A DNA stretch of 63,776 nt, the filler included, from Reticulomyxa filosa (taxonomy: Eukaryota > Protista > Foraminifera), in assembly GCA_000512085.1 (NCBI GenBank). It is 20 parts of 20 records of this genome, joined end to end, with 100 filler letters (N's around TTAATTAATTAA, not from the genome) between each part and the next. Parts side by side here need not be neighbours in the genome. Positions count along the whole stretch, not along the records: positions 21,232 to 25,983 come from ASPP01003265.1; 19 more parts are not named here. One strand, 5' to 3'. The position numbers and the translations under genes were made by a program. Below the pieces are notes generated by a model. That model ran no database searches and was not told where the DNA came from. It saw nothing but the letters and a program-made list of their open reading frames with translations. Below, piece after piece: positions 4,709-36,597 of the stretch. The first letter of the stretch is position 1; the number at the start of each line of letters is the position of its first letter.

Positions 4709-5395
4709 ATGAATTTGTTGATATGTGGTGTTGTGATATGTGTGTTCAAGTGTGCTGAGAACTACGGATACTTTGCTCGACGACGCTATGTGGCAAATAT
4801 ACTCACTGATGAAGTGAAAGAAGACCAAGTCATCAATGAACTGCGAAGACGTAAAAAAAGAGAACAGAAAGACTTAAAAAAACATTTGAAAGATATCGAG
4901 AAATACGAAAAAGTAATTGATGGAAAACAAGCCATTGCACAAAAATCAAATCGATAAAATTAAACGAAAAGATCAATACAAAGAAGAGATTTACCAATTG
5001 GAGACAGCTCCTCCACTAACTTTAGAAGACTTGACACACGAAAAGCAGTACAAAAATGATGCTCTCGGCGTCCATGGAAGCGATGGTGAGTTACCACAGT
5101 AGACGTAGAAAATAAAGTGGATGACATTGAAAGCGATCGATGAACCGTTGATGAAGATGAAGACAATGCAAGTGAAACCAAACGAAACGCTGGCCACATA
5201 TAGAGTATAATCGAAAATATAATCAATGTATCTGTTGGAAACCTAGTGAGAGTTTTGGGAACAAAAACTGGTATCGTTGCGATTTATTAAAAATGTCAAC
5301 TTTTCCAATGAAAGACTTGTTAGAATTAAATTAGAAAACTGGCATCCCAATGCAATCAATTGAATAATGAAGTGAAACATTTATTTTAAAGTTTA
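4709..5395 (+). pseudogene. Disrupted gene: hydrophobic segment, coiled-coil and CAP-Gly-like remnant
   Basis: Fragments VSVGNLVRVLGTKTGIV / NVNFSNERLVRIKLENWHPNAIN resemble the CAP-Gly consensus but are split across frames with stops. Confidence 0.45.
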
Positions 5396-6217: not shown

Positions 6218-7402
6218 GCTGAATGCGGACATGGTAAGTTTTTAGAATGTGATTGTGGTAAATCACATATCATTTGTTGGAAATATCACAATAAAAAAAT
6301 GCACGTCTGCGTCGTAACACCAACGAACAAGAAAAACGTAAGTTTTGGGAATATATAGATATTAAATACCAATATGGTGGACACATTCATGAAGCTGTTG
6401 AACAATTTTGCGGCAAAAGTAGTCGTACATTTTCAAACAAATATTAATTACATTGTTGCTACAACTCTAATTGGTATTTATACGCATATAACCTTGAGCT
6501 TCCTTTAATCTCGATTTTGGAAAATGTTTGACCATTGATTGTAACGACAGTACCTGAATCATTATAGTAATTCAAAAAACTCTTTAATGATACATCCACA
6601 TCACTGGCCTTGCTCATATTGTACCACGTTTTGTCCTCCTTGTTAAGTCTCTTTCTATGCAATCTAAATAAAGAAAATATTCTATTTTGAACAAAAGTTG
6701 TACTATAAATGATCATTCACTTGATATTTGAAGTTAAAATTTTGTGTATAATAGCTTGTAAACGTACTAAATTAGTTCTTTCTGTTGTGTAGAAGAAAAC
6801 TTTATGTGTTGGAACAGTGTTTTTATTTTTTAGAGTTGCGCATTCGAGAATAGGTTAAAATTGTAATAATTGATAAAGTGGAAGTTGTTTGCGTTAATAC
6901 TTTGGTATTTTTTTGTGATGAATGATAATCCGAAAAAATACATGTTGTAAGTAATTGACGAAAAAAAAAATTATTTGACAAAACGTTTAGTCCTTTTTTT
7001 CTCAACTTAAAAAAAGTTCAAACGAACTTTAAGATATTTTATGTAAGGGTTACACGACAAAAAAACAAGACATCCAAAAAAAGCAAAAATGACTTTCTCA
7101 ATTTTACTCTCGCGTAATGTGCTCCCTTTTCGTTGATTATCTTGGACNNNNNNNNNNNNNNNNNNNNNNNNNNNNNNNNNNNNNNNNNNNNTTAATTAAT
7201 TAANNNNNNNNNNNNNNNNNNNNNNNNNNNNNNNNNNNNNNNNNNNNAAAAAAAAAAATCCCCTCCTCTTCCTACCCTTCTTCCAAATTATGTGTCCATA
7301 TTTTTCCCCCTCTGTTCTGTCAAGTCTGGAGGCATTAAAAAAAAGAAAGAGGGGGAAAAAAAAAACAAAAAAACAAAAAAACACAATGGCAAACTACAAA
7401 AG

Positions 7403-9034
7403 GATAGTGGGGTCCAACTGTTTAGTTATTACATTTTCAACATAACGAATCCACATGACGTGCTGACAGGATCAATCCCGCAATTGAAGGAAATTGGCCC
7501 ATTTGTGTATCGACGTTACGAGTTTAAGGACGACGTAATGTTTTCCAACGACTCGTGTTCGGTGAGTTATCGCTACGATTACGACTACGTGTTTGACGAA
7601 GACACGACCTATTCGCAAAGTGAGTACACTCTGAACGACACCGTCACCGTACTGAACCCGGCCATGCTCACCTTTTTTCACACCTTGAACCAAGTTGGTT
7701 ACGTGCTAAAGGAGTGGGCCGATTACTTTCAGTCGTTGCCTGGAATGAAGCTGTTCTACCAAGTCCCTGCGAGAGACGTCATCCAAGGCGTCTACGATCC
7801 AGAGCTCGTGGCCATCAGTGGTAAAAGTACTGTTAAGAATGTACATGCAAAAAAAAAAAAAATGTATACGTACATTGCAAATCTTCCCTCCTCCTCCTTT
7901 CTACTTTACATACACACACACGTATACAAAGATTGTATTGTGCTTTTGCAAAGTTGAAATGTTAACAAAAAAAAAATAAATAAATAAAAATAAAAATGTT
8001 TGCAATAATATGTGTGTTGTTTTTTTTTCTTGCGGATAGACAGAAATGACATATTCATTAAGGGACAATAGCTCAATAGATGTGATTGAGCACACAGGGT
8101 ATTGTGAGAAACAAGACATTGGCGTGCTGAACATGATTTGGAACACCACCAACATTTCGTTCTGGCTGGTCGATGAGCCCGTTCATCCGGCGCGCGAGCC
8201 CAGAAATTGGCCGTGGAAGAGTCTGTCCAAAGACGACACTTTGTTGGTTTGGCACTTGGCATTCTTTCGCCAAGTCGATTATGTGTTTGACAAAACTATT
8301 GAAGTGGATGGATTAAAGTTGTGGAGATTTAAACGTTTGTTTTTGTGTGTGTGTGTATGTATGTGTACGTACTTTTTCTATACGTACCTTTTTTTTTTTT
8401 TTTAAAAAAAAAAAAAGTTTCAGAGGACACATTAAAAAATGCAACAAACAATCCGTATAATGTTCGCTATTACTCGTTCGGCTACGACGGCGTGTTGAAT
8501 CTGACGGCACGTAAACACGTGCCAAAACAGACAGTGGCGTTTTTGTCGTACCCCCATTTTTGCGAAGGTGACTATTATGTCGACCATGTTGGCCAACCCA
8601 CAGGCATGGACGTGCCCGATTCGGACGTGGACTTGACGTACCTGGAATTGGAACCACAGACCGGTATCGTCTTAAAAAATTGGCTGGCCTTTCAAACCAA
8701 TTTCCAAGTCTTCCCTTTATCTCGAAATGTGTCCTACGTAAATGCTTCCGATCAAGTCCAATCCTTGGTCACTAACTTTTCCAATCTTCCTAATTTTTTA
8801 GTTCCCATGGGCTATGAAGCCGTCGATGCGTTTGCTCCTTCGCACGTTACCAAGTCACTCGCAACGTCCCTGAATCTTATTGCCCAGCTCAAACATGCCT
8901 CCCTCTTTGGAGGACTGACTGTTGCTGTTGCTTCTATTGCTATGGCTGTGTGGCTAATGTGTCGTAGATATCAAAAGACTGTTGTTGAAAAATGTTTCGT
9001 TTCTATTTTTTTTGAAAAATTTCAGTTTTCTTGA
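7403..9034 (+). CDS. CD36 / scavenger receptor class B (LIMP-2-like) protein, multi-exon, 5' part off contig, 3' end uncertain
   Basis: YIFNITNPHDVLTGSIPQLKEIGPFVYR, FLSYPHFCEGD, TYLELEPQTGIVL are CD36-family motifs; C-terminal TM GGLTVAVASIAMAVWL. Exons ~7403-7820, ~8040-8334, 8418-~8960. Confidence 0.85.
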
Positions 9035-9759: not shown

Positions 9760-11320
9760 TTAAGAAGCCTCTTCTCCAATTTTTCTAAGTCTCTCGACCT
9801 CCTTTTGCTGCCATTCCTCGTTTTCTTTGAGGGCTTTTTGGTGTCTCTTTTTGGCGAGTTCGTAGTCAGGATGAAGGCCGAGAGACAGTTCCATGACATC
9901 GTAGATATCGGGAAGGATGTCTTTGGGATCATCGATGATGCCAGCAGCGATGAAGGCATTGTTGACGAGTTGTCGAGCGACAGCAAGAGCCTTGTGTTCG
10001 TCCTCTTCAATGAGACGATAGAGACCACGCACGATATTGTGTGAAGGATTGATCTGCATGCGTTGCGGAGAAGGACGCACGTCCTCGCCAAGACGCGTCA
10101 AGTAGTCGCGATAGGATTGAGCCTGATGATCGACGAGTACGGCAGGATGAGTTTTCAAGCGGAGAGTCATTTCGGCTTTTTCGATGCGATGTGGGAACTG
10201 TTTGCGAAGCCATTTGCCGAGACGTCTGCATTCGTCCTCGGTCAAAGCATGATCGTCGGGACGCGACGCCTGAACGGAGGTACTTTTTTCGATATCGACG
10301 AGGTCTTTACCTCGATAGCCCCCTAGACCCTTCATGCAAAAGTCGTCGATCTGCGCGTAGCAGAATAGCACTTCAATGTCGCTATCTGCAAAGGCTTCCA
10401 TGTACGGCGACTTGAGTGCAGCGTCGCGATTTCGCGCAGACAGATAATAGATCTCAGTCTTTTGACTTTGCTTCATGCGATCGATATAGTCGTCCAAAGA
10501 GACCTTTTCATTGGCATGTGTCTTGTTAGTCTCGTAACGCAGCAGCTTGGCAATGCGCGAGCGATTCTTGTAGTCGTTGCATACACCCTCTTTGATAAAG
10601 CCACAGAACTCGTCGTACCATTTCAAATATCGCGACGGGTCTTTGGTGGACTGCCGCTTTAGAAAGTCGACAATTTTCATCACCAACGACTCCTGCAGCT
10701 GCTTGATCAACTCCGAGTCTTGCATGTTCTCGCGACTGATATGAATGGGTATGTTCTCACTATCCACCGCGCCCTTCACGAAACGCAACCAATCCGGAAT
10801 AATCTCCGGCGCGTTCTTCTTCACCAACACTTTGCGACAATAAATCGACACTCCTGGCTTCAGACGCGCCCCTCCGAAACGCTCCTGATGTGTCGTCGGA
10901 AAGTAAATCAATGCCTGCGCCGTAAACTTGGTCGCGTCAAAGTGCGAGTGATACGTATAAAACGGACTGTCGTAATGATTGCTGATCAACTGGTAAAACT
11001 CCTTGTGCTCCCACTCCTTCACTTCGCTCGGATTCTTTGTCCACACTGCTCCGCTGCTCGTTATCTTCGACCCGTTCAGTCGGATTGGAAACATCAGGTA
11101 TGCCGAGTACTTCTTTATCACCGCCTCTACGCGGTTCTTGTCCGTAAACTCGTCTTTCACCGAGTCCTTCAAGTGGATCACAAGTTTCGTCCCACGTTCG
11201 ATATTGTCGCATGGTGCTATGGAGTACGTACCGGTTCTATACAATTATATATACATATATATATGTATATGTATACGTATACATATACATATATATATAT
11301 GTGTACGTATATGTATACGT

Positions 11321-16142: not shown

Positions 16143-17062
16143 ATGCGTGAAATCATAACAATAGAAGTCGGTCAAGCGGGCATTCAGGTCGGAAATGCAG
16201 CGTGGGAGCAGTACTGTGGGGAGCACAACATCAGTAATGAAGGCAGACAGCATAGAGTAACAAAAGATAACTCGCTTAAAGTATTTTTCGAAGAAGCGAG
16301 TGATGGTCAGTTTGTTCCAAGAAACCTTGCGGTTAAGACTTTGATTTTTTTTTTTTTTTTTTTCAAAATAAACTTTTGAAACTTAACTAAAAAAAAAAGA
16401 GTATATGTGTATGTACATATACACGTATCTAACTTTTGCAGGTAGATTTAGAGCCAAGTGTGATTGATAAGGTGAAATCTGGACCACTTGGATCACTGTT
16501 TAACAGCAATTTTTTGTTATCAGGAAACGAAGACGCATGCACACATGCACGGGGTTTTTACTCGACCGGGAGGCAAATAATAGACGAAGTGACTGACAAA
16601 TTGCGAAAATTGGTGGATAATTGTGACAATGTGATGGGGTTTATAATAACGAACAGTATTGGAGGAGGAACAGGCTCTGGCATGTGCATGTTGATCTTGG
16701 AGCGGCTGTACGTAGATTACAAAAAGAAGGCAAAAGTGGGATGTGTGATATACCCATCAAAGACGTTATCGACCTTGATAGTTGAGCCATACAATGCGAT
16801 GCTTGCAATGCATTGGCTGGTGGATCACGTCGACATTGCACTGGCATTTGACAATGAGAGTCTGTACAATATTTGCCAAAGGAATCTACATATTGCAAAA
16901 CCTGATATGAGCAATGTGAATCGATTGATTGCAAAAGTGATATCATCAATGACCGCATCTATACGGTTCAGTGGAGAATTGAATGCAAATTTGGATGAGT
17001 TGCGAATGAATCTGGTCTCTTTCCCGAGATTGCATTTCATGACTACAGGCATGAGTCCAATT
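16143..17062 (+). CDS. Highly divergent alpha-tubulin (exons 16143-16331, 16442->17062), 3'-truncated
   Basis: MREI...GQAGIQVGNAAWE, VPRNLAVDLEP, signature GGGTGSG, VEPYN, DNE, SSMTASIRF; alpha-type Glu at the 254-equivalent position. Confidence 0.9.
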
Positions 17063-18232: not shown

Positions 18233-20614
18233 GATGAAACAAAGCACAACTGTAAACTTACGTCTTCAAAGCCCGGTGGCCGAGGGCCTTTTATCGTGTC
18301 ACTCTCCTCCAAGCCCTTGTAGTAGTGTCGGTCCACAATCAGGAGGTGACCTTATCCAAGATGAGCCAAAGGGCCCTCAAAACATGATCTTCAAGAAGGC
18401 AATTAACCAACTGTATGTAAAAACGAAAGCGCACGAAACGAACGAGGAGGAAGAGGGCAAGGTGAGGGATGTTTCAAAGCCGATTAAAAAAAAAAGTCGA
18501 TTGGCAGGAATGGACACCATTTGTCAAGCATCATCAGGAGACATTTGCCAAAGTTCGTGGATGGACATTACCACCTCAACCAAGGTGACATCCCATTGTT
18601 GCGACTGGGGGAGTACCAAACACGCCGACGACGAGCATTTGTTGTCTCCGCAGCAGCAGCAGCAGCATCAGCATCAGCAAGAGGGTTATCCAAACCATTG
18701 CAGCCTCTCACCAATTACGCCCCCTTCACCAGCTCAACTGAATACCCCCATTACTCCATTACACGTCCACAAAGGATTGGAAGCCTCACAGGTTCTCACT
18801 TCGCCTGCAGTCGTCCATTCATCTATTCATTATCCATACCAGGCGATCTCTTCCAAGTACTTGTATTTTTATTTTCCTCTCTTTCTCTCCCCCCCCTCCC
18901 CTTCTTTCAGACTTTCAAAAAAAATTTGAAAGCAGCAAACACGATTATGTACCCCTCATTTTTTTTTTTTTTAAAAACTCATACGTATACTCAAACGACA
19001 AATAAACAATTGCAAATTAAAAAAAAAAAAAAAAAAGTTTATTTGAAGAGGAGGAAGAAGAGGAGAGCAAAGATGACACAAGCGAAGATAACGACAATTG
19101 GTTTCATCCATTAGAGAAATTGCATAATGAAAAGTTTTGGAGTGAAGAGAATGTGAGCGAAGCGTCAGCAACGATCTTTGAATTGGATGAAATCCGTGGG
19201 GAAATGTTTGAGTTGCATAACTACAAAAAAGTGAACGACTTGGGACATGGCACTGACTCGTTTGTGTACGAAGTGGTGGATCGTAGACACGCCACGAAGG
19301 AAATGCGCAATTCCCATGTGGCCATGAAGTTGACCAAATCCAAGTATGGACGCGTTCGCACGGAGATCAATTTGTTGTACCAGTTGCGACAATGTCCGCA
19401 TGTGGTGCAGCTTATCGACGTGCTTGAAAACATGTCCTTGTACGTACTGATCTTAGAACAAGCCTTTTGTTCGTTGGAAGAACTGCTCACACAAAAGTTT
19501 GCGATTGTTCCCATGAGTGAACATGTTGCCAAGTCTTTCATTTCGGACACTTTGAAAGGGATCATGGCCGTTCATAACTTGGGATTTGTTCACAAAGGTC
19601 AACTTTTTTCTTTTTTTTCAAAATTTGTTTGTATTTGTAAAGACCTTTTTTTTATTATTATTATTATTATTCCGATTTATTTCTTTTTTTTTTAAAAAAT
19701 GTATACGTACAATCTTACAACCAAAAAAAAAAACATATCCAAACAATTGTGAAAAAAAAAAATAAAAAATAAAATTGTAATATGTGTATAGATGTATATG
19801 ATGTATCATACATATTGAATGAATGTGTAAACACATACAACAAAAAGATATCAAACCGGATAATGTCCTCGTGTTTGTTGACTTGTCCACTCGGCGGTTG
19901 CATTGCAAAATTAGTGATTTTGGCTTTGCCACAAGGGTCAACGTATACACAGCGTCAGGTGTACAACTACTGCAGCAGTTGCCACCCAATACTTTGGCAG
20001 AACTGAAAAAAGGTGCCAACGATCGTGCCGGTAGTCCAGGATATTGGGCACCAGAATTGTGTAACACTTGCGTGGAATTGACACAAAGTTTCAAATTGGA
20101 CGTATTCAGTGCTGGTGTTACGCTTTATCGGGTAATGTAATGACAGACAATAATAAAAAAAATTATACATTTATGTATTTATTATTGTTACTATTATTGT
20201 ATTTATTTATTTATTTATTTATCTTGGGTTCGATTACATTTTTCATGCTAACACCATTCATATCTTACGTAATACCACCAACAAAAAAAGATGTTGTGCA
20301 ACGAATTGCCGTTTGATGCATTTGAAAGCTGGCCCTTTTCAAACGTCACAAAAACCAAATTGTTAAAAGCAAAGCCTTGGTTCATTGTGGTTCAGTGGGT
20401 GAATACTGACCGCCCATTTGATAGCAGCTTGAATGGTGGTGCTGACAAACAAAAAGCGAGCTATATTCGCAGAGTTTGCAATCGCACCTTGTCAGAACAT
20501 TCCATCGATTTGATGAGAAATATGTTAAAAATTCGTTCGAAGGACAGGTTTACATTGCGTCAATGTTTAGAACATGAGTGGTTTTCTGAAGAAGTGAGCA
20601 TGAAGAGAGGATAG
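18233..20614 (+). CDS. Ser/Thr protein kinase with low-complexity N-terminus, multi-exon
   Basis: LGHGTDSFV, VAMK, HKDIKPDN (across intron 19598-19847), DFG, GSPGYWAPE, DVFSAG, RFTLRQCLEHEWF. Confidence 0.9.
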
Positions 20615-21234
20615 GTGCATTAAATAGCTTTTTCTTTTATTTGTTTCTTGGTTTGTTTATTGTTTGTTGTTTGTGCTGGTATGTACGGTTTCGGAAAAGA
20701 ACAGACTTTTTTCTCTTTGTTTGTTGCTTTAAAAATCGTATGGCACTTGTTTGTGTTTGGTGTTATGTATATACATGTTTTTTTCCACTCTGCCATTGCT
20801 GTTTAACTCATTGCTTTTGGATGCTAACAAAATAGCCTATATTTCATTTTTTTTTTTATGTATTCACTCCCTATGGGAAAAAAAATTAGGGCTACGTCAA
20901 TTTAAAGTTTATTCATGCAGATGATTGTCACAATAGGCCAAATCTCCTTTCTTGCAACGCGCATATTTTTGCACTTTAAGAATATGCATTTTTGTTGAAA
21001 GAAAACTTTTCCGGTTTCGTTTTTTGCTAACTTTACATAGTGCAAAAGAATAATTGCTGAAAAAAGTAGGGAAAAAAATGACAGTTACAAGTCTTGCATT
21101 CATTTTTAAAATTGAAATAGAATGTTGTTGTNNNNNNNNNNNNNNNNNNNNNNNNNNNNNNNNNNNNNNNNNNNNTTAATTAATTAANNNNNNNNNNNNN
21201 NNNNNNNNNNNNNNNNNNNNNNNNNNNNNNNTTT

Positions 21235-21275
<41 letters not shown>

Positions 21276-21387
21276 ACAGATAATTTCCTACTATTATATC
21301 CAATATAAAAATATGTGCACATATATATAAACATATATATATATATATGTATATGTATACGTATACGTAATGGAAAAAAAAAAAAAG

Positions 21388-21917
21388 AATTATTTCGTAT
21401 ACCGCGGAGACCACACTAGAATAACGGACATGCTGCGCTGTGCATTTGTGTTTGACTCGTTTTCGGATTTGTATCGTGGGTTTTCAATATTGGAAGAGAT
21501 TGTGTCGGATAACAAGAAAAACATCAAAGGTGGCATTTTATATGTGAAGGACCGCTTTGTTCCTCAGTCCGTTCCATTCGGATATCGTGATTTGCTTATC
21601 CACTTCTTTTGTCCAGGTTTTGCACGTTATATGTATATACATATATGTATACATACACACATATATACATATATATATATGTATATGTAAATATGATCCC
21701 ATGTGCAAGCAAACAATGAAATAACAAAACAACATAAAAAGAGTCGGAAGTGATATGCGAAATCCAATTCCACCACAAAGCATTGTATCGACACCACCAA
21801 CTCAGTCACGACTTGTATAAAAAGGCACGCTTGTTCAAGACTGTCCAACAGCAAAATCTACTCTATGATTATGTCAGCACTTTTGTCAAGCCTAAGTGCT
21901 CTGTTCAAACAACTCTG
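21388..21917 (+). CDS. RelA/SpoT-like (alarmone-synthetase-type) nucleotidyltransferase region, exons 21388-21616 and 21742-21917; N-terminus off contig
   Basis: Ordered motifs ITDMLRCAFVF, VKDRF, GYRDLLIH, CEIQFHH, SHDLYKKAR; the phase-1 GT-AG intron joins the exons in frame (CP-E-SEVICEIQF). Confidence 0.7.
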
Positions 21918-21919
21918 GT

Positions 21920-21961
<42 letters not shown>

Positions 21962-22004
21962 TATATAATTATATTGAGAGATGTATTTATGTTGGATGCA
22001 ATAG

Positions 22005-22968
22005 ACAACAACGGCCGAACAAGGCAAAGAGGAGAAACAGTAACAGGGGAAGAAGAGGAGAAAAGCAGGACAGAAAGAAGAAGTGAAAAAGGGGAAGAGA
22101 ATAATACAAGCTCAATGGAAAAACTAGTTGCAGAGTGGCTGCCTCGTTGCGATGTGAAACAGTACATTATAAAACTGCGGGAAAATGGCTACGATAGCGT
22201 AGAGCTGTTGCAATATGTCGGAGATAAGGACAGCGAGTTGATTGAGATGGGATTTAAGCCTGATGACGCTGTCACTTTTTTACGTAAAAAAATGAGCATT
22301 TTAAATTGCCGCATGCGAAAACTGCTAATGTGTTGGATGACAAGCATCCCCATTTGATCGCGAAAGCGTTTGCAAATGTAAAAAACGATTCCAATTCAAT
22401 CCCTTGGCAGTGTGTTTGGTTTGGTAAAAATCCTTTTCGATGGATTAATACTGATTGGGAGGCCGCCACGTTAAGTAACGAGGGAGTTGGAGTCCCTCAT
22501 CGCTTAGAATGGAACAACGATCAAACACACGATGATACTATCGACAATGGAGTCCCGCGCTCTTTTTCCGTTGTCTTTCGATTTCGAGTGTCCAAGTGCA
22601 AGGAGGGGGTACATCACTCCACTCTTGTCGGGTTGGAAGATCTCACTTTTATTCGAGGAGATGACTTGTACGAGTGGGACCTGGTTGATAATGCATTCCA
22701 TTCCGTCGCTTTAGTTGTCAATTTTCAAACCAAGTCCTTTTCTGTTATGATTGACGGTCGTGACGAACAAAAAACTGTACCTTTTCCAAACAACTTTCAA
22801 CCCGTTCATTGTAATGTCCTTTACTTTGGATGCCATATTCATCGTGGCTACAACAATGTTTACAAACGTATGGATGGAGAGATTTCTCAGATTCGCGTTT
22901 TTTCCATTCCTTTTAATTCACTCGCAATGCAAGAAGCCATTCATTCATATCGGCGTATTGCCTCATAA
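22005..22968 (+). CDS. SAM domain (~22115-22290) followed by LamG/concanavalin-A-like domain (~22555-22945); probably continues the upstream NTase gene; frameshift at A7 run 22286-22292
   Basis: VAEWLPRCDVKQYIIKLRENGYDSVELL...ELIEMGF fits the SAM consensus; SFSVVFRFR, FHSVALV, VMIDG, LYFG, MDGEISQIRVF fit LamG. Confidence 0.65.
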
Positions 22969-25394
22969 ACAAACAATGACATATACACACACGCATTTTG
23001 GATTTATGATCTAGATTTTTGTAATATGTCCAAGACTTATTTGTTGGTCACACATTTTGCCCACTTTTACTTGAAACTTTTCTTGATGATTTGTTCAAGT
23101 GAACATATAACAAATTCAATTTCATGTTGCAAATTTTTTTAAATGATGATACCAATGGATTCTGTAAAAAGTTGTTTCAATTAAAATTGCCAACAAAAAA
23201 ATGTGTAACAATTACTTTTTATTTTTTATTTTTACCAATGAAAAAAAAAGAACATCAGCATATGTCAATTCAAAGCCACACAAGTCCCCCTAACCCCCGT
23301 TTTAGGCCAGCCCAGGTGCAGATAAGAATCAATATTGAATTATTTTTCCAAGGGGAACTTGTAATAATTTTTTTTGTCAAATACGAAATTATTTGCAATT
23401 TTACTTTTGAAAAATAACTATCAACATATGTTGTATGTTGTAAATGACAGAACTTTTTTGTTCTTTCAACTAAAAGAATTTTTTTTGCGACATGGCCACC
23501 AAGGAAATAAAGTTTATTTTATTTTTTTCTACAACTTATTGGAAACGTAGGATCTTAGTTTTAATATATTTCAATAAAAGTCGCAATTTGTTTGCTTTCC
23601 AACTGGTTCCAGCTTTCGTCCATCCATTTTTGTTCTACCGTCAATATTTTCATTTGTGCTGTAGATTTGTTTCTCTTTCGTCAATTTTTATTCACAGGCT
23701 GCTTTCTGATATAGATCTTGTATCTTCCAAGCAAATGCGTCGTTGTTGGAGTATTATTCAAGAAGTTGGTCCACTTTTTTTGGGTTGTACGCAAAATTCG
23801 ACTTTTTTTCGATTTCCAAAAGTTGTTTTAATTGTTTTGAACTATTTGCGACTGCTTCATATCTTATTTGTGTCAATAAAAAATAAACATCAAAGAATTT
23901 TCTTTTTATTAAGGAAAATAGCTTTACAAAAATATCGAAAAAGTGATAATTATTTGGATAAAATGTTTATTTTTGACTTGTTCAATGCTGTCACAACAAC
24001 TACATATTTCCTCCTACGGAAGCTGGCTCCATTCTACAGGCTCTTCGTTTTTCCATTCATTTAATTCAGCAATTTTTTTTTTCATTTCTTCGCAAGCATT
24101 CGCAACTGCAAAGAAATCTCTATTTGTTCATTGCAATTATTACTCTGTTGCACATTTGAACCGAACTGTGTGCCCATTTGGCTTGGGAGAATAAACTGCC
24201 GATCTTGTGTGAATTGATCAATTTTCAATTGTAATTGCCCAATCTGTTTCCCTTTTTATTAGATCATGCTAAATACATCACCGTTTTCCAACATTTCACT
24301 TATTCTTATACTTCAATCGCAGGCTTCGTGTTTGCAAGTGCGTGTTGTTGTTTTCTCTTGGTTCAATATGGCTACAAATGTCTTAATATCAATGAAACAA
24401 GAAATTGAAGATTATCCTTTTCATATGCTCTTGTAGGTACGCAAAAACCACTGCTTTTCTTGATCTTCACCTTGACCACCAAACGATAACAACTGCACTT
24501 CGTCTTCATTTGCTTCAATCTTTTTCCATTGCACCACGCAATGCCCGTTCATTGCGCATCCTCGGGATACGAATAATCAATTGCACCATGCATGATATTC
24601 AAAACAACTTTAAATTTTGTGTGAAAATAAACTCAAGTTTTTTCATAAGAAAATCGAATATTTTGTTTGAACAATATTGTGTTGACTATTCGAAGAATAA
24701 ACCAAAAAAGACTACAATAATTCATTTGCTCTTTATGGTTTTATCCATTTCCAAAGTCTTTGTCAAATAATCTTTTATTTCTTTTTAGTTTGCTAAAACA
24801 CAAACATTACAGAGAAAAAAAAAAAAAATATTGAAGTAGCCCCTTTTTGGTGGTCTTTCCATTTTGTAATTTTTCTAAAAACACTTGCTTTTGGAAACAA
24901 TGATGAAATAAAGTTGAACAATACAATGTAAGCGTTTCTTATTTGGAAAAAAATTGTGTTGAATAAAAGGGTTCTAAAACGAGTTCAGTTCCATTTTTTT
25001 TATTTTTTTATCTTTCATGTTTGATATCTTTTTATTTAGTCCAAAGCACAGACATGAAATTACTCAAAATCTGAAAGCAGTATGGTCGTACGTAATTTCA
25101 GATTGTTGTTTCATACTGAAATTACAATATAACCGTAGTTTTTTTGTTGATAATTATTAACAAAGTATTGTTACTTTTGTATCGGAAAATATCTTCGTGA
25201 AGAAAAATGTGTTACAAAAGCAATGAAATCAACGATAAAATTGAAATTAAAATAAGCAACCAAACAACAAGAATGAATTTAGTTCAAAATGCAGCAAAAA
25301 AACGAATGCAAACTCACAACATATTTTTTTCTAATATATATTATTTAAAAGAAAGGATTTACAAAAAAAGGACAGAAAAAATGAATATTAAAGG

Positions 25395-25983
25395 TTAAAC
25401 TGTGTCATAATAGCAGCCAATGCCATCTATTGATATCTGAGATTGTTTCAAAGTTTTCTGATAATATTTTGTTGATTCTCTGAGAGTTTGAAAATGATAG
25501 AAGGTCCAATCAGGAGTACGAACCAAACGATTGAGGGAATCATTGATTAGATGCAATACTTGAATATATGCACATTCAATCATAGGTACCGCTTCCAACC
25601 CTATCTCTTGTACAAAGGAAGTAAGAATGTGAATCAACTCAGTTGGCATGCATTTGTAACGAGTAATCTTTGCCAGCTCAAATTCGGTATCTACAAAAAA
25701 CTTAATTCGATTAAAATTCCACAAGCCTTCGCAAGGTAGATGTAAATCAACTTTGGAGTCTTCTTCCAGGAACTTTTTGACAAAATCTTGGATGAGAATT
25801 TGATCAAAGTGAGATAAGTTGACTTGCATTCGTGAATTTGGATCAATGTAATGATAATACATCCTCCTTATCGCAATCTTTAGACTGCAATTTGTGATAT
25901 CAATCATATCACTAGTGACTAAGTTGCCATTGGTTAGATTCAGTCCCTTTCTTAGCAAACAAGATAGATCCACATCCACATTC
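25395..25983 (-). CDS. C-terminal exon of an RGS-domain protein
   Basis: MYYHYIDPNSRMQVNLS and AYIQVLHLINDSLNRL correspond to the RGS YI...xNIS and late helix (LMxxDSxxRF) motifs, separated by an insert. Confidence 0.65.
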
Positions 25984-26083: not shown

Positions 26084-29000
26084 GAAGAAGAAGAAGAAGA
26101 AGAAGAAGAAGAGGAAAAATAATGCAAACGAAGAGATAAATGTCAGAGCTGAGAAACGTGATGTCGCAGTCGAAAATGAAAACAATGCCAATGACCAAAA
26201 CCAACCCAGTGTCAAAAACAAAAGCAAAGACGACAATGTCGAGGATGAACCAAATCAAGAGTCGGGGTCGCCATGGACGGAAGTCAACTTCCAACAAGAG
26301 GTTGGCAAAAATAAAAAAGCAGAAACTGACCATGCACAGATTGGGCCCCATGACAGTGACAATGAAATCATTGTGAGTGCCAATAAGCCTCGAGACAAAT
26401 CCGAAAGTGGAAAACGTGTTGTGCCGCGAAAATACAATGCAAATAACACCAAAAGCAGTAACAAAAATAAAGCGGCCAAAAGTGACAACTTTGCCAGTGG
26501 AGGAGTTGCAAGAGGAAGAGAAAGAGGAAGAGGAAGGAGTGAACATAAAAAAGACGCATTCAAAAACTGGTTAGAAAAGATTGTAAACGGATTGAAAGAC
26601 GAAAAAGTGGTGGTGCTGTTTAGTGGCAGCTTACGCCATTGCTACGAATTAGCCTCGATGCTCTCTGAAAAGGGTGGCATTGTTTACATTGAAAAGTCCA
26701 AAGACATTGCCGATCGCAACAAAAATCTGGTGTCTCTCAACAAGGCGTCCAGCGATCGATTCAGTGGCCCCGTGGCTCCACGTTTGGCGTGCAACTTGCA
26801 ATGGAAGTACTACTTTATGCACTCCATTTTGAAAGTGGTCATGTTGCACTGGCGTGACTCGGTCGAGCGTGTAATGCTCGAAATTTGTGAGCATTGGCAT
26901 CAAGCATTGCGTACTATTATTCCTTTTGCTATTGGTAATGGTACTAGTGGTAGTAGTGGAAATGAGATCAATGAGGAGATCAACACAGCTACGCAGCCTG
27001 GAATCATAAACAATAAACAAACACAGGCTTTATTTGCTCATTTGAGACAACCTTCGAATAATGAAATGTTGAAAGAGTTCATTGGTGTTTTGAGCATCTG
27101 CTTGTATTGTGTGAATCCACCCCGACATTTCCAATGGATTAATAGCACGCGAGATCATCAAAAGCTGTTTCGAGGCTGTCGTGTCCGAGTATCTCATTTG
27201 GGGAAAATGTCCTTCGAAGGCATTGTCACCAATGTGCATAAGAGTCGAAGTGAGGTGACCATCCTGCTTGATCACTACTTCCACGATCGTCATCGCCATA
27301 TGAACCAGGGCGTGCATCTGAAACCCGTCGAAATTGTCAAACTCGAAAAGGAAACTCAAATCGATCTTATCGGATTTATGGAGGTGCGAGACACGCGCGC
27401 AGTCGCTCTTTCGCCACCAGTCGTCGCCATCATGGACACCTTACTATCCCACTGGATTCCGTTTTTGCCGCATTTGTCGCAGATCATCAAAGTATGGCAT
27501 CCGAATGTGGTCTTTGCGTTTGCAAATAACCTTTCTCCGCCAAAACGATCAGCCACGACGGCCATGGCTACAACAACAACAACAATGACAACGGCAGCGA
27601 CAGCGACAACAACGACAATGACAATGACAACAACGACGATGACGACAATGACGACGGAAAAGAAAGACTCAAGTACAGACAATGTCATGACAACGATAAA
27701 ATCAAACTCTCATTTCGAGGACGAGCCATCGATGAAGGAATTGATTGTGCCGCAAGGCCAAGACTTGAAGGCAAGACGTGAAGATGATCATGGCGGCGAT
27801 GTGGATGGAGATATTGACATAAGCGGTGGAGGATCGGACGCCGAGTTGGACGACGATCTGAGACAAGCAATTGCTCTGTCGATGAGTACGTTGGAACCAG
27901 AGAACAGCAACAAGGACGGCAATACGCTAACGATCGATGATCCATTGCCGCAGTTGCCTTTGAGTGATTCTTCCGACAATGAACACGAAAAGGAAAAGGA
28001 AAAAGAAAAGGAAGAGGATAAAGAGAAGGAAAAAGAAAAAGAAAATAAAAATGAAAAGGAAAACGAAAAAGAAAACGAAAAAGAAAATGAAAATGAAAAT
28101 GAAAACGACAAATATTCAGACAACAAAGAAGAAAAAGAACCAATACAAATGGATGGCGAAGAAGACGACAACGACACAAAGTGGATGAAAGTGCAATACC
28201 AAATCCTGCTCAAATATTTGGAGGGTCTGTCCATGGTGTTTGTATGCGAAGGTTTGGACCAGTACTGTCGCAATCCGCAAGCCATGCTCAAGTCCTTGTC
28301 CCAGTCCACGTGCGTGTCCACATTGGCCGACGTGATGGCCACCATGGGCAAGAAATCGTCGAGTTCGGCAGTCTGGGAGCAGTGGTATTCCTCCAGCGGA
28401 CGTCTGTTTGACAAGTTATTGGACCACACGAGACTGGCGCACGAATTCCAAAGACACATTCCAACGCTAATGTCTCGCGAAGACGACCAGCAAAAGCAAA
28501 CGAAAAAAGAGACAATGATAACAACGACAACGACAACGATAACGACAACGACGACGACGACAACGGATGAAAAACACGAAAACGAAAAGGAAAACGAAGA
28601 TAGCAAAGAAGAAAAGGTGGCAGACAAAAAAACAGACATTTCGATGGACCAACTCGCCAATGTCATTTATCAACCCAGATTTGACAAGGAAAGCAAAAAG
28701 ATCATTGGCATGGATGGCAGTGTGGCCGACACTCCGACATATTGGGACTTGAGGCATCGCAAGCATGTGATCATCCATCCCAATCCCTTACAACTGGAAT
28801 TCCGCAGACACGAGCCGGACACGGTTGTGTTCGTCGCGGACGCAAAGGTGCCATTGATTTGGGACTACTACTTTGAAGTCAAGATTGTGCAAATGAAGCC
28901 ATTGAATGAGGCGAATAACCTGGGTTCCATTAGCATTGGTTTGCGTTCGAATTGGACAGATCTGTTCATCAATGACAATTCGACCAAGTGGACAAGCAAT

Positions 29001-32000
29001 CGACGCTATATGTCATTCCAAAACCCTAGCGTGACTTCCAAACAGCAATCATCATCATCATCATCATCATCATCCTCATCCGCATCCGCATCCTCGTCTT
29101 CGACGACCAATCAATCATTCCAAGAGTACTACCAGGGCTCGAAGAAAAAGGAGACGGAGACGCAGAAGAAAGAAGAGGTGTCTGTGTTTGATATGTTGGA
29201 AAAGGGTGACTACGTGGACTATCACGACAGCGACTCGAACCTGTGGAGATCGGGCGTAGTCTTGTCCAAGGAGCGGCCTTCGTCTGACGCGGAGCCAACA
29301 ATGAAGATTCAGATGCTCGACAACGCAAAAGATGTGAAATCGATTTCAATGAGTTCCAAGAGCAGTCGCAACAAGATCAGCGTATTTGGTACAAAGTGCA
29401 TGTACACGCCCACACTGCGAAGCGACCGCACGGTCACGAGCGTGAATGATTACGACACGATCATATTTGGCGAAGGCGATATTATCGGCTGCGGAATCGA
29501 CCATCTGAAAGGCGAAGTGTTCTTCACCAAAAACGGAGAGCGATTTATCGGCCGTCCTACGTTTATCGATGTGAGGCCTGAAAACTATTACCCTTGTGTG
29601 GAAATCCGTCATCACAATGTGGTCATCGAAACCAACTTTGGACAGCACCCGTTCGTATGGGATGATTATACCAAAAAACCGAGAGTCGGAGATAACGCCG
29701 ACTCCCAATGGGCCGTTCGCGTGGATCTGTACGAAAAACAATTGGACGACGAAAAGCGACAAGCGATCATGGCCGTTCGCACCAAACGCGAATTGCGTGA
29801 GGCGCAATACATTCGTCGACTCGACATGGCCGCGAATTTGGAAGGGAGTGGAATGCTGCCCACGGTCAATCGCGAACAACTTATGCGAGGAATCGAGTTC
29901 AATGGGGACGACCCCAATCGCGTCGTCAACTGGGCGTTCAGTCAGGAAGACTTCTTCGCCGCTTTCAACGAGTTGGGCCCTTCCAAGTCCGAGCGCGAAC
30001 GCGAAGAAGAAGAGCGCGAAGATATGAAAAAAAGAGAGCGTCTCACCATTGTCCAGTCGCGCTTGCAGGCTGTCGTCGATGGAAAGATGTCCATTCGAAT
30101 GGCCAATGAAACCAAAAAGACCAACACCTCTGACACCAGTGCCTCCACTAGCGCCATTTCATCGCCCACCAAGGGAGTTACGTCTCCCCGCAAAGACATG
30201 GCACATTTCACCACAAAGCACAAGATGCTCATGCCTAGTTATCGAACTTTGGCGCATAAATCGGTTCATACGGTATGTGTTGTTTTTTTTTTTTTTTGAA
30301 TACAACAAATTAAATATATACATATATGTATATATGTATATATTTAATTTGTTTACTTTGCCATATACGTATACATATACATATACATGTATGTATATTT
30401 GTACATATATTTGTACATATATTTGTATACATATTTGTAATTATATATATATATATATATGTACATATATAGTTCCCAGTCACGAAAGCAGAACCATTGG
30501 AAAACAAGTTTTCGAAAATCAACAAAGCACACGGCTATGAATTGCACACATCGAATGTGGCAGACTTGCCAATCTATTACAAGCAGAGTATCAGTGATCC
30601 GCGACTGGACGCGTGGATTGCGACAGTGGAGCGACGTTTGCGCCTCGCCGGCGCGGAGCCATTCACGCTATTCGAGGTAGTGACGCGCCTGCGGGCCAAT
30701 CCTCGGGACGTAGTGGCGCTAATGCAAGCGCGAGAAATGTATCCGGAGCTGGAAGACTGTCCAGTGTCGGCACGTCGCTTTGCGAATGAGACCACGACGC
30801 AGTCGCCCAACGTGAAGCTGGACTTGGTAACGATCGACGCGTCGGCGCAAAACCTGCACTTTGGCACAAGCGTGAAAGTGAAGGCAGACAGTAAGGCCAC
30901 GGTGCTGATGGTGCGCGCAAAAGTGTGGGTAGAGCAAATGTTTGAAATCTTGGGCAGAGAGGGTCGTGTAATTGTGATCGACAACGAATCGAAGCCGAAG
31001 CTGGCATTGGTATTGTTTGCGGACACACCATTTCGCTATGAGTGTCGATGGTGGTTGCCTTTGGACGTGTTGGAATTGTCTCCACTGAAGGTGAACGAGT
31101 CATCACATATCCATCCGGTCAAGTTGTCCCATCACTTTATACACAATATGGACTCGGCCATTGCTGGCTGTGCCAAACAATGTTTGCAATATTTGCATCG
31201 ATCCAACAAGTTCCAAGCCTTGAAACCGCCTTTGACCAGTCAGTTGCTATCGCAGCCTCAACATTACGAATTTTATGCCTCGTCGCTACCCTTCTCTTTC
31301 GCAAGTGTTCCCATGGCATTTGAGACGTCGCGACAAAAGTGTGAATCTATCTCCTCCAGCTTGTCCTGGGTCGAGGAACATGCGCTCAATGATCCACAGC
31401 TCATGTCCATGACCATCAACTATTGCATCGAACAGTGGGAGAGACTATCGCATGAAATCGTCTTGGAAGGATGCAAGGACGCCAGTCAATTGCACGCATT
31501 GACCGTCCATTGTCGCTTTGACAATTGCTGCGGCATTTTATTCGAAGTCCCGAAGCTCGATGAAAAATACTCGTGCAACGACTTCTTCACCATCTATGGA
31601 GACATGTTTTGCCAAGAGATCTTGTTTCGACGATGCGTCGCCGAGGTCACACACATGGTTGTTCCGTCCAACGAAATCTGGCTGTCCGTCACGGGCTCCA
31701 AGCCACTCAATGTCAAGGTCTATCCCTTGCCCGAAATCATCACCTTTGTCCTTGCCTCGTCTCTCCAGAAATTGTGGAATTGGAATAATGATTTGCTTAT
31801 TGCCATTATGAAAGTTACACCTACTCTATATTTGAGCCTTTTATATATTTACCATATATGTATTATGTATTTATTTATGTATACATTTGTATATGATTGC
31901 AACCAAACATAAACGAATTAGAATCTATTCAATGACAATGTCCCGTTGCCAGTGTGTTCGGAATGGCTATTGGGACTTGCGTCTGTGTTTGAGTCCTTTC

Positions 32001-35000
32001 CACAAAGCGAAAAAGCTCATTTGTCCAATGACTTGGTGGAGTTGCTCAAGCTGCTTGTGCACAACCTCGATCACTGCTACAAAGTGGAGCTGGCTGAAAA
32101 AATCAACAACGACGGGTCCAAACTGGCTGTACACTCCTCGTTTGTGAAGAATGGCTTTGCATGTTTGCTGCAAGCACAACAATGCTTCAATTTGTCCTCC
32201 AAGGGTATCGTTTTACCAGAGTGGTTTGCTCAGTGTTGTGTCGCACTTGATATGGCACAGGTAAAATAAAAAAAAAAAAAGAAACATTTATTTCTGACAA
32301 AACCAACATATAACATAACGTATTCCGTTGTTTAAAAAAGCGTCCGTTTAAACAAGAATTCATCCAAGAGCAATGCATAAAGTACTTGGAAGAGGTTGAT
32401 GAAAAAGAGCAAGCACCTGTCCAAATCCAATCTCCAGCAGTGGCAACGGCGACAGTGACAAAAGAGGATGCACAACAAGAGAAAGAAAACATGCCCGAAA
32501 AAGCGGGAAACATTTGCAAAAAAGAAGCAAGCAATGCGACAACAGCATCATGCGATGGCGATGGAAAAAAAGAGCCCACGTCGGCAGTGACGTCGGAGAC
32601 GACAAAGGTAACTCGAGAAATGAAAATGAAATGGCTGCTCGACTGGAACAGACACGATGATATCACATTGGTGTCGTCCTGTTCTCACTCCACAAAGATG
32701 GCCGAATATATCAAGCAGCGACCCATACCCCCGTTAGACTTGACAAATGCGACAAAGGATGCCGAAAATACCACTCCTCCGAGCGAAGAGAAAGTGAACG
32801 AAAATGAGAACCGCAGTGGCGACAATCCGCCACCGAACGAGGAAGATGCAAGAAGGCAAGAGGAGGTAGAAGAAGAAGAAGAAGAGGAAGAAGAGGCCAA
32901 CGACGTATACGACGTTACCGCTTCCTCGGAAAAAGAACAAGGCAACGAAGCAGCGAGTGACGATGACAAATATATGAATGCAAATGAAAGTAAAATGAGT
33001 GAGCCAACAACGAATGCTAGCAACGCCATCGATGCAACGACAGACAATCGTGAACAATCACATGTGAAATTTGGGGATATATTGGAAGACCTTATCAAAT
33101 CGGAAAAACTCTTGCAATTACGATCCCAACCCAAATGGGATGCCGTGGGTGTCAAGCATTGGAAGAAATTGATTCATTGCAGACTTGTCCTTTTACAAGC
33201 ATTGAATGCTGCCATTGGCAATGTAATCCCACTTCTCGATTGCAACGGACAACTTTCCTTGAATCATGCAATTGCACACATATTCCCGCTGCTATTCCAA
33301 CATATCCGTGACAGCTTTTTGCACAAGATTTTGGACATTACTGCCACGCCGACAGAATTGAGACCTCCCTTTGATTTGCCCATCAATCGACTCCGTGCCA
33401 CCGCCTCCAACTCCTTCTACGACTCAGTCCTGTTCCAAGCCCATCAATTCCTGTTCCGTCTTCAACCCATCCGTCTACGGACACCATGGACTTTGGGTCG
33501 TGGCTTGAGAGCTGAAACCGCCTTCGTTGTGAAACTGCAAGAGAACATGTTTTCGGAGATGACGGACCCTATCGAGCCTTCTTTGCTCATTTAATCGATG
33601 AGTTGCAACACGACCTCGAGAGGCTCCAATCTGGAAACGACAACCATCGCAATCGAAATGACGGTAATGCTGATGAGACCATGAGAGGCAATAACAGTGC
33701 TGCTGCTGCTGCTGCTGCTACCGCCGAATCAAAGACAGAGGCACAAGGCAGCGCCGCTGGCACTGAAACGGAAACCGAAAATGAAACCGAAAGTGAAAAA
33801 GACAAAGAAGTGGATTATTATTCCATTCGTGATATCCCTGTCACTTTGGCTTTATTTGTACCCACATCCAATCGGGCAGGAAGATTGGGCCGTCATTTGG
33901 AATATTATATGCTCAATCCAAATATGGCGTATTACTTGCAATCGCAGGCGTATTTCACCTTGGGACGGATCATGGGCATTGCCATTCGCTCCAGTGTCCC
34001 CTTGCACTTTGATTTGCCAATGTGGTTCTGGATTTGCTTGCACAATTACATTACTTCTGGAAACATCCGGGGAACTGTGCGTACCTCGAATCGTCCGTTT
34101 GACATTGATATTGAAAAACACTTGGAGTGGTTGGAAGAAATGGATGTTTCCACTACTCACACGCTCCAAGAATTATTACAGTTTTGATTCAATTCCCAAA
34201 CACAGGACAATAATAAAATATATATATATATATATTGTGTATGTGTATATGTACACATATATGACAACAGGAGGATCTGTGTGAAATTTGTTTGAAATAT
34301 TATAATTGATGTTTTTTAAAAAAATCTCTTCTTTTCTCACAGATCTGATGACCGAGAGAAATTTGAAGTATTTTTAGAAATGATCAATTTTAATCACACG
34401 CCGAAAACATTTGAAGATGAATGCAGACAATACAAAGTAGAAGACAAAAATCAATTGGTGAAACGACTTTTAGAATATTTGATGTACGATCGATGGGAAG
34501 CACAACTTGACAGCTTCGTTTGCGGGTTCTCTGAAGTCGTACCGATTAACATATTGCTAATGTACTCGCCTCGTGAAATTCGAGGTCACATTTGTGGAGT
34601 GAAAGATATTGATCTGACGTTGCTGCGTGATCATACTGCATATCGTGCCGATTTGACTGCTAACGATGTTTTGATCCAAAACTTTTGGGACGTGGTATTG
34701 TCCTTGGACAATGAATTAAAATCCAGTTTTGTCGATTTTGTTTACGCCCAAAAGAGACTTCCAAGTGCCGAAGAGTTTCGTCGACGCAATTTGCGTTTGA
34801 TGATTTCCGTTTTGGAATGTGGAAATCCCGATCAAACATTGCCACAATCTCAAACTTGCTTTCTCAATTTACAAATCCCCAGATATTCCTCGTATGTCTT
34901 TTTCTGTTTATTTTTTGTTGTGGATATTTTTAAATTAAAAATATGTTCGTGATTATAGCAAAGAAATATTAAAGCGCAACTTGCTAGTCGCCCTGAAATC

Positions 35001-35043: not shown

Positions 35044-35395
35044 TGCTTTACGTTTGGACGTTGTTTGAGTTTGCGTTTATAAATCGTTTTTAATTTACAA
35101 TTAAACTCGTCCAACATTGTCAAAGCAGGACTTTCACTTAAAATGTGCTGTCCAATCTAAACAAACAAAAAGAATTTTGTTTTTTTTGTTTTTTATTGCT
35201 CTTCTTTTTCAAACATCAATCTCTTGCTTTAAAAAAAAATTGATTATGACAACTTTAATTCAATTACCAAGATTCGATCAACCTTACGCTATAANNNNNN
35301 NNNNNNNNNNNNNNNNNNNNNNNNNNNNNNNNNNNNNNTTAATTAATTAANNNNNNNNNNNNNNNNNNNNNNNNNNNNNNNNNNNNNNNNNNNNC

Positions 35396-35587
35396 GACGG
35401 CTTCTTCCTCGAATATTTCGGCATCGTCCTGCACGACGCCACGCATCACGCCGGGCCCGACTACATCCAGAAGGCGTCGCTGTACAACATCGAGAGCTTC
35501 TTCGGCTGGGTGTCGTCGGTCGACGCGTTCCGCAACGCCTTGCAGGCCAATGCGCATCCTGCGCTCAACACGGAAGGACAAGGTTGA
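35396..35587 (+). CDS. rutB: Ureidoacrylate amidohydrolase RutB, 3' fragment (bacterial)
   Basis: [21 protein letters not shown]...[11 protein letters not shown]; stop overlaps rutC start (TGATG). Confidence 0.88.
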
Positions 35588-35976
35588 TGCCCATGAAGCC
35601 CGTGATCCCGCCCGGCACCGGCAAGACGCTGGCGCCCTACTCGCCCGGCGTCGTCGCCGACGGTATCGTCTACGTGTCCGGCACCCTGCCGCTTGATGCC
35701 GACACCAACGTGGTGCATGTCGGCGACCCGACCGCGCAGACGCATCATGTGCTGAAGACCATCCAGTCGGTGATCGAGGCGGCCGGCGGCACGATGGCCG
35801 ACGTCACCTTCAATTCGATCTTCCTCACCGACTGGGCGCACTATGCCGCGATCAACGCGGTCTATGCGCAGTACTTCCCGGGCGACAAGCCGGCGCGCTA
35901 CTGCATCCAGTGCGGCCTGGTGAAGAAGGACGCGCTGATCGAGATCGCGACTGTCGCGCATATCGGCAAGACATGA
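35587..35976 (+). CDS. rutC: Pyrimidine utilisation protein C (RidA/YjgF family)
   Basis: [55 protein letters not shown]; operonic between rutB and rutD. Confidence 0.95.
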
Positions 35977-36597
35977 CCTTCGACGTCCACGCGTGCGAAC
36001 GGCCGGACGCCGAGACGGTATTGTTGTCGGCCGGCCTTGGTGGCGCGGCCGGTTACTGGACGCCGCAGCTTGCCGCGCTCAAGGCTCGTTATCGTGTGAT
36101 CACCTACGATCAAAGCGGCACCGGGCGCGCTCGCGCGACGCAACTGCCGATGGGCTACGCCATCTCCGATATGGCAGACGAGGTTCAGGCGATCCTCGAT
36201 GCGACCGGAACGACGGCGTGCCACTTCGTCGGCCATGCGCTGGGCGGCCTCGCGGGCGTCGACCTTGCGCTTCGCCATCCAGACCGCGTGCGTTCCCTCA
36301 CCATCGTCAACGGCTGGGCAACGGCCGATGCCCATACGAGACGCTGCTTCGAGATCCGCGTCGCGCTTCTCGAGGGTGCCGGACCCGAAGCCTATGTCCG
36401 CGCCCAGCCGATCTTCCTCTATCCCGCAACCTGGCTGGCGGCGAACGCCGAGCGCATGGAAGCGGAGGACGCCCACGCGCTGTCGGGCTTCCAGGGCAGC
36501 AACAACCTGCTGCGCCGCATCGAGGCGCTGTTGCGCTTCGACGCCACGCCGCACCTCGACACGCTACGATTGCCCGTGCTGCTGTCGGCCGCGCGCG
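35973..36597 (+). CDS. rutD: Pyrimidine utilisation protein D (alpha/beta hydrolase), 3'-truncated
   Basis: [49 protein letters not shown]; ATGA overlap with rutC. Confidence 0.92.

Follow-up and report, generated by a model that had tools for sequence, protein, structure and literature searches.

Toxin domains of the RelA/SpoT type are known (PMC3482391), and the active-site residues and substrates of toxSAS enzymes are treated in PMC11782079. Judged by motifs, the closest described relatives of the protein considered here form the Tas1/Apk1-RelV/EAS branch. The members of this branch that have been tested are toxic pyrophosphokinases, with Apk1 and SaEAS being very fast; VpEAS makes (p)ppGpp only, Apk1 and Apk2 make (p)ppApp, and SaEAS makes both (PMC12691689). 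The Apk1 survey in the same paper covered bacteria only. Among eukaryotes, fungal NLRs carry RelA_SpoT effector domains (PMC4986451), and divRel RSH domains occur in Dictyostelium, fungi and diatoms (PMC3153485); for both groups an immune or signalling effector role has been proposed as a predicted function. A precedent for non-plastid eukaryotic RSH domains exists in fungi and Dictyostelium. Animals retain the hydrolase Mesh1, with no obvious synthetase known (PMC10107265).

Alarmone synthesis beyond bacteria and plastids is an open question. The locus described below, from the foraminiferan Reticulomyxa filosa, belongs to a real and, it seems, previously undescribed family that varies a known kind of enzyme. 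In the open-access literature we found no publication on a foraminiferan synthetase family, nor any joining ppGpp with foraminifera.

The gene at the start of the contig

The window, i.e. the whole stretch of 63,776 nt that was analysed, consists of 20 small contigs of the R. filosa assembly with N44-TTAATTAATTAA-N44 spacers between them. The genuine context of the gene is 21232-25983 only, because the rest of the window represents other contigs joined by artificial spacers. The gene sits at the 5' end of its contig on the + strand; the kinase located upstream in the window is on a different contig and is no true neighbour. A protein search with the first exon produced one match, the public R. 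filosa model RFI_03488 (P0001, 421 aa), which maps back to this locus. The gene is a nuclear gene of R. filosa cut off by the contig start (Table 1). The sequence-only reading had argued for a host gene as opposed to a bacterial contaminant; this is supported by the confirmed GT-AG introns and their low GC with TA repeats. The two introns, the TAA codon and the A7 run were all found where that reading had placed them.

Table 1. Features of the synthetase locus, in positions of the window.
Feature	Position	Strand	Evidence
3' portion of an intron reaching the contig start	21232..21387	+	GC 0.14, TA repeats, acceptor AG 21386-21387
Exon for the synthetase core, containing D-x-x-R with the catalytic Asp, KDRF and the GYRD loop	21388..21616	+	Motifs; 58% identity to P0002 over the exon
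GT-AG intron, phase 1	21617..21741	+	GC 0.24; splice identical to public model P0001
Exon, E-x-Q-x-H and H-x-x-Y-x-x-x-R, end of synthetase	21742..21917	+	Motifs, alignment
GT-AG intron with TA repeats, phase 0	21918..22004	+	GC 0.15
Acidic linker with break 1 (one base short within 22005-22040)	22005..22111	+	TAA 22041-22043 as assembled
SAM domain	22112..22288	+	Pfam SAM_1 E 6e-4; family SAM profile E 3e-16
Frame switch (break 2) at an A7 run	22286..22292	+	Longest homopolymer of the coding region
Predicted LamG/concanavalin-A-like beta-sandwich	22396..22968	+	ESM Atlas PF13385 matches; stop TAA 22966-22968

Since an intron fills everything from the contig start to 21387, no 5' exon is present on the contig. 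The first visible exon begins behind the acceptor AG, so that the annotated start codon at 21370 falls within the intron and is an artefact of the public model. Judged by the relatives, the absent exons would encode about 175 aa, comprising a predicted helical extension and the part of the synthetase that bears KxxxRxxxK; the family profile of the N-terminal extension had no match anywhere in the window. The N-terminal motif does lie off the contig, as proposed earlier. The proposed RxKxxxS identity, on the other hand, did not hold: the motif is most likely KxxxRxxxK, seen in 52/54 close relatives, with RxKxxxSxxxK in 0/54.

The five motifs reported earlier for the synthetase were confirmed in place, with TDMLRCAFVF at 21424, VKDRF at 21544, GYRDLLIH at 21580, EIQFH at 21759 and HDLYKK at 21807. 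Pfam did not detect RelA_SpoT in this copy, and PDB sequence searches with single exons gave no matches. Despite the Pfam miss, structural matches were obtained for the proposed RSH-type synthetase fold. For P0001 the ESM Atlas offers a model with a mean pLDDT of 0.56, in which residues 7-134 matched PF04607 models with TM 0.61-0.68. An AF2 model of the relative P0030 (54-row alignment, pLDDT 93.7) matched SAS2 (6fgk) with Z 12.4 and rmsd 3.5 over 155 aligned residues, while AF2 gave no usable model for P0001 as a single sequence (pLDDT 33.5). The catalytic Asp, ExQ and loop GY of the RSH SYNTH superfamily are all present, as is the DxxR motif, and this copy is among the 43/56 close rows with an intact 10-residue catalytic core. 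Conservation in the family is 100% for D91, 98% for E159, 100% for Q161 and 98% for the Arg of DxxR.

The SAM domain expected downstream on the same strand is weak in Pfam (20.6 bits vs the cut-off of 23) and reaches E 3e-16 with the family profile. In the AF2 model of P0030 the SAM domain gave Z 10.9 and rmsd 1.1 with 62 residues aligned. In polymerising SAM domains, a GH at the start of helix 5 contributes to the end-helix surface. Of the 31 other SAMs in the family, 27 have His at this place, mostly as GH; 22 of these fitted the pattern and 5 were identified by visual inspection. This copy has DD instead. Its SAM may therefore have ceased to polymerise, and the SAM-driven switching suggested in the sequence-only reading becomes doubtful here.

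Pfam did not detect LamG in this copy. The LamG/ConA-like beta-sandwich proposed earlier gained support from predicted structures, as residues 232-421 of P0001 in the ESM Atlas matched PF13385 (Laminin_G_3) models with TM 0.61-0.69 and a feature score of 0.97. This region is 43% identical to that of the paralog P0008, and a two-sequence LamG profile run among 152 proteins matched P0001 and P0008 and no others. The tail of P0009 looks LamG/SPRY-like by eye only; its alignment was uninformative.

A 195-aa open frame at the opposite end of this contig (25398-25982, - strand), convergent with the synthetase gene, had no Pfam match; by eye it may be RGS-like. Genes on other contigs code for a CD36 family protein (7280-9001), Hsp90 (9793-11214), tubulin (16463-17032), a protein kinase (19051-20614), a DRMBL nuclease (48585-49346) and a Kelch protein (60454-61482). 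Two GC-rich, intron-less, bacterial-looking contigs (2988-4315 and 35395-36597), likely contaminants or prey DNA, encode a solute-binding protein SBP_bac_3 and an overlapping operon with an alpha/beta hydrolase.

The foraminiferan family and its relatives

A profile search revealed an expanded protist family, mostly foraminiferan among the members with a named taxon. With a profile of seven sequences, the number of representatives was 64 at a threshold of E<=1e-30, rising to 188 at 1e-10 and to 1821 at 1e-3. Taxa were looked up for 30 representatives: 16 were foraminiferan, one was a cryptophyte and 13 had no named taxon (16/17 of those named). The foraminiferan genera with matches were Ammonia, Nonionella, Elphidium, Bolivina and Reticulomyxa, with at least five paralogs in R. 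filosa; P0009 and P0023 derive from transcriptome sets.

Close members share a core in which a helical extension of roughly 120 residues (51 profile hits; all-helical in the model) precedes the synthetase, most have a SAM domain, and extra domains are shuffled around this core. Among the matches listed, the fusions include ubiquitin, Ub+Hint, UBA, Kelch, WW, C1/ZZ, SPRY, TLDc, galectin, AbfB, C-lectin-like repeats, kinesin/EF-hand, 14-3-3 and choline-transporter domains, and more distant matches come with TPR, LRR, ankyrin or an eCIS-core effector domain. The family is predicted to be mostly cytosolic, with most members having no membrane segments: a hydrophobic 19-mer is absent in 29/33 SAM-type members. 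Two members have a hydrophobic N-terminus with one or two predicted membrane segments and are receptor-like. We observed no NACHT/NB-ARC domain in the visible part of this copy or among the families listed for 136 relatives (for part of them, the best five per protein). In exact-motif scans, a weak test, relatives made up 0/43 candidates from viral contigs, 0/23 from prokaryote genomes and 1/225 from metagenomes.

Two further arrangements were seen. P0013 (Nonionella) carries two ubiquitin domains and a Hint (intein-like) domain ahead of the synthetase-SAM core, where self-processing could free the enzyme. In P0053, P0056, P0058, P0061 and P0064, one of them from Nonionella, the synthetase stands behind a choline-transporter-like membrane domain.

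The motifs of the family are K-x3-R-x3-K, D-x-x-R, GYRD and E-x-Q-x-H...H-x-x-Y-x3-R. Canonical RxKxxxS, DxxG/AxR, GYxSxH and EIQIR are absent, with DxxRxS/A, GYRDxL and EIQxH in their place. Judged by these motifs, the family belongs with the Tas1/Apk1-RelV/EAS branch and not with canonical RSH; the earlier assignment to RSH synthetases therefore stands for the fold, and fails for the canonical class. A 47-row profile aligned with Tas1 through K-x3-R-x3-K-x4-Y-x-G-D...D-x-x-R (E 4.4e-6) and with SaEAS through E-x-Q-x-H...H-x-x-Y. The best E-value of this profile was for YwaC (1.7e-7), ahead of Tas1, and whole-domain scores put canonical SAS2 above Tas1/SaEAS. With the P0030 model, Tas1 ranked 36 in Foldseek and was not among the 50 VIA-align matches listed. 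Fold scores do not separate the RSH subgroups; motifs do.

A tree was built from 31 rows and 129 columns, with 10/66 close and 10/86 distant proteins picked by hand and 11 reference loci; Tas1, SaEAS and VpEAS were not included. The 10 close rows, not all with a named taxon, grouped together (100/95). A 100/99 branch split the seven canonical RSH rows from the GYRD rows, the latter including a Photobacterium RelV-like enzyme. Placing the foraminiferan rows beside the canonical rows was not rejected in the AU test (p 0.071). We therefore claim no donor.

The GYRD loop is found 329 times among the 1,369 Apk1 homologs in the supplement of PMC12691689, and a Vibrio parahaemolyticus entry there, not equated with VpEAS, has nearly the whole foraminiferan signature. 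The idea that GYRD marks a substrate other than GTP/GDP is not supported: GYRD does not show a changed substrate, because VpEAS, a Vibrio relative of a GYRD-bearing cluster, makes (p)ppGpp only. The residue five after the loop Gly is Leu in 78% and Met in 15% of the family, and is also variable among other bacterial GYRD proteins. A conserved family Asn stands two residues beyond it, where this copy has His.

Some bacterial and phage neighbourhoods of GYRD synthetases are worth recording. In Bordetella phage PHB04 (L005, 571-2836) the synthetase gene lies behind the portal gene and is followed by a 69-aa ORF, which precedes a gene annotated as (p)ppGpp synthetase/hydrolase, an arrangement like Apk2-Tis1-Aph1. 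On Deinococcus plasmids (L004, 1118-2366; L015, 115-957) a divergent GYRD synthetase is followed by a small overlapping ORF, a toxin-antitoxin-like layout, with an HTH gene upstream in L004.

Frame breaks and the state of this copy

The evidence favours one fused synthetase-SAM-LamG protein interrupted by two 1-base breaks over the rescue introns of the annotators. It had been argued that one extra base at each break restores a single frame, which makes the fusion likely; homolog scores, linker length and the paralog P0008 (RFI_23754) all agree with this. P0008 has the synthetase end, the SAM and the same LamG within one protein model. Its match to the last frame begins at 22354, within both candidate rescue introns, and the frameshift model scored 187 vs 162 and 144 for the intron models. 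The distance from ARLF to the SAM is 88 residues in the frameshift model, 88 in P0008 and 89 in P0002, compared to 59 in the public model. The GC of 22005-22068 is exon-like (0.48), and an independent codon model trained on other contigs placed the frame switch at 22288. A SAM stands behind the synthetase in 24/37 close relatives with at least 80 residues there, this copy excluded (25/38 with it, from 66 close proteins).

We judge it about equally likely that this copy is an intact gene misread twice in sequencing and that it is a duplicate in recent decay. The duplicate would be a pseudogene of an active family in which both breaks are real, a reading that is compatible with the family-level mechanism and comes very close to an even chance. 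It would account for the loss of single bases at two places not more than about 250 nt apart and for the lack of any run above A3 at break 1, whereas break 2 falls within the longest homopolymer. Two breaks in about 1.4 kb here compare to about two in 23 kb of other eukaryotic coding sequence in the window (P about 0.007 under a uniform rate), with the background rate undercounted, because the detector caught only one of the two breaks of this gene.

The substitutions point in the same direction. This copy shows S96A, R128Y, N148H, F167L and K171H (P0002 numbering), the GH to DD change in SAM helix 5, and departures from the consensus at 5/33 conserved columns (family median 1; at least 5 in 11/57 rows); still, the close relatives P0002, P0003 and P0046 likewise depart at 4-5 conserved columns. 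Faster evolution than in the paralog P0043 appeared in 3/45 relative-rate tests (p 0.013-0.02, uncorrected), with no excess against the other four relatives. Against decay, in-frame stops are absent from both synthetase exons, the SAM and the 226-codon last frame, and the splice sites and all 10 core residues are retained.

The assembly also bears on the question. Pyrosequencing miscounts homopolymers, and we take the R. filosa assembly to be pyrosequencing-based. In its SPRY + HECT E3 ligase gene (window 26115-34919, + strand) we saw a comparable frame switch near 33546-33561, just before the HECT and with no long homopolymer; therefore, 1-base breaks occur elsewhere in the assembly. The locus L001 (2-1715) has the same architecture: a SPRY-helical extension-synthetase ORF is followed by a SAM in another frame, and the frame changes at an A7 run that lies behind the synthetase and ahead of the SAM. 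This also speaks against decay. A further frame switch was noticed at about 4918-4960 of the window (+ strand), where short A runs lie close by in a eukaryotic ORF of charged composition. When 4 of the 24 listed sequencing runs (shares 0.04-0.06) were compared with 21990-22970, three had no match and one had short low-complexity matches.

It is very improbable that the public gene model is correct and the sequence free of error, with extra introns (21896-22068, 22332-22366) or alternative acceptors bypassing both breaks: frame-restoring GT-AG pairs do exist at the locus, but the skipped stretches have an exon-like GC of 0.40-0.49 vs 0.14-0.24 in the true introns and encode residues homologous to P0008, and the intron models cut the linker to 56-70 residues vs 88-89 in homologs. 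Programmed frameshifting was rejected on inspection, the slippery heptamer being absent in the correct register.

Being truncated and broken twice, this copy is a poor test object; the intact relatives P0030, P0022 and P0023 are better ones.

Possible function and comparison with known systems

We give an even chance to the reading in which the locus holds the 3' portion of a spliced synthetase-SAM-LamG gene of the Tas1/RelV branch, from a family of likely cytosolic, sensor-gated pyrophosphokinases. Such enzymes would likely serve in defence or signalling. Family members would transfer pyrophosphate from ATP onto a 3'-OH acceptor. Because the branch is lethal when unregulated in the bacterial cytoplasm, the enzyme would have to be gated in a eukaryotic cytosol; the constant helical extension and the SAM are the candidate gate and the swapped domains the candidate trigger. 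A cue may be bound by the variable domain (lectin-like, ubiquitin, WW, EF-hand), and the enzyme may be switched on by SAM clustering or by release of the helical extension. The product would be an alarm signal or a local drain of GTP/ATP. The most likely setting would be defence against ingested or invading microbes, where cytosolic lectin-type and ubiquitin-type sensors could detect breached food vacuoles or invaders. Kinesin, EF-hand, 14-3-3 and transporter-like fusions fit general signalling equally well.

As acceptor we slightly favour GDP/GTP, short of an even chance; ADP/ATP appears less probable, another acceptor or none somewhat less so again, and an RNA 3' end the least probable. Against the reading as sensor-gated pyrophosphokinases stands the acceptor-contacting residue, His in Rel and Asn in Apk1/SaEAS, which is Leu/Met in the family.

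Tentatively, and with rather less than even confidence, we envisage that foraminifera run a cytosolic (p)ppNpp alarm in which dozens of synthetase-SAM enzymes of toxin-type bacterial origin act in pattern recognition. If true, interchangeable lectin, ubiquitin, calcium and membrane sensors would make up an analog of cGAS-like receptors with stringent-response chemistry, in a plastid-free eukaryote.

The same fusions could be read as parts of a housekeeping second-messenger system, in which many sensor-coupled synthetases feed one nucleotide signal in the manner of adenylate cyclases. We consider this unlikely. The presence of the family in all five foraminiferan genera with named matches would suit it, as would the EF-hand/kinesin, 14-3-3, WW, C1 and membrane-domain fusions and the two members with membrane segments; the apparent ancestry from toxins or exported enzymes, the lineage-specific expansion, the free domain shuffling and the several lectin-type domains argue otherwise. 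Less probable again is that the domain no longer makes alarmones, and modifies RNA or protein or acts as a nucleotide-binding scaffold only. In its favour, the family has other residues in place of canonical R-x-K-x3-S, of the Arg five positions behind the catalytic Asp, of the loop His and of the Arg in EIQIR, and other RSH toxins pyrophosphorylate tRNA (PMC11782079). However, most of these differences recur in Vibrio RelV-type sequences, VpEAS yields (p)ppGpp only, and the catalytic residues Asp, Glu and Gln hardly vary.

With the sensor-gated pyrophosphokinase as the preferred reading, regulated sensors would seem to have arisen in a protist lineage from a bacterial enzyme of the toxin type. 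The family is large and modular, its catalytic residues are intact and some of its members derive from transcriptomes; it therefore offers cloneable candidates for a cytosolic eukaryotic synthetase.

Compared with canonical RSH/SAS enzymes (RelA, Rel, RelP, RelQ, plant RSH), the family agrees in the SYNTH fold (Z 10-12.4) and in having the catalytic Asp, the ExQ and the GY of the loop; unlike them, it has no hydrolase, TGS or ACT domain and falls on a separate branch in the tree. SARM1 is a SAM-gated NADase. As in SARM1, a SAM adjoins a nucleotide-consuming enzyme; here, however, the SAM is single, there is no TIR/ARM and the chemistry is different, so the likeness is an analogy only.

With Tas1/Apk1, Apk2 and SaEAS (6ox6, 8vx3; PMC10083569, PMC12691689) the family shares the N-terminal K-x3-R-x3-K-x4-Y-x-G-D, the D-x-x-R and the C-terminal H-x-x-Y. 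Those enzymes are interbacterial or exported, Tas1/Apk1 and Apk2 come with immunity proteins, and their loop is GYSGxN or GYKGxN vs GYRD in foraminifera; where SaEAS has N169 and Apk1 N370, five residues beyond the Gly of the loop, the family has Leu/Met. Vibrio RelV/VpEAS (PMC12691689) share K-x3-R-x3-K, ITDxxR, VKxRF, GYRD and ExQxH...K...H with the foraminiferan family. They are Sec-exported single-domain bacterial enzymes, whereas the foraminiferan proteins are predicted to be mostly cytosolic and carry SAM and sensor domains; the Asn five after the loop Gly in Vibrio is replaced by Leu, with an Asn two further on. Like the RelA_SpoT-NACHT fungal NLRs (PMC4986451) and divRel (PMC3153485), the family represents eukaryotic synthetase domains beyond the plastid RSH groups. 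Unlike the fungal NLRs, it combines a SAM with a shuffled sensor, and has no NACHT/NB-ARC among the families listed.
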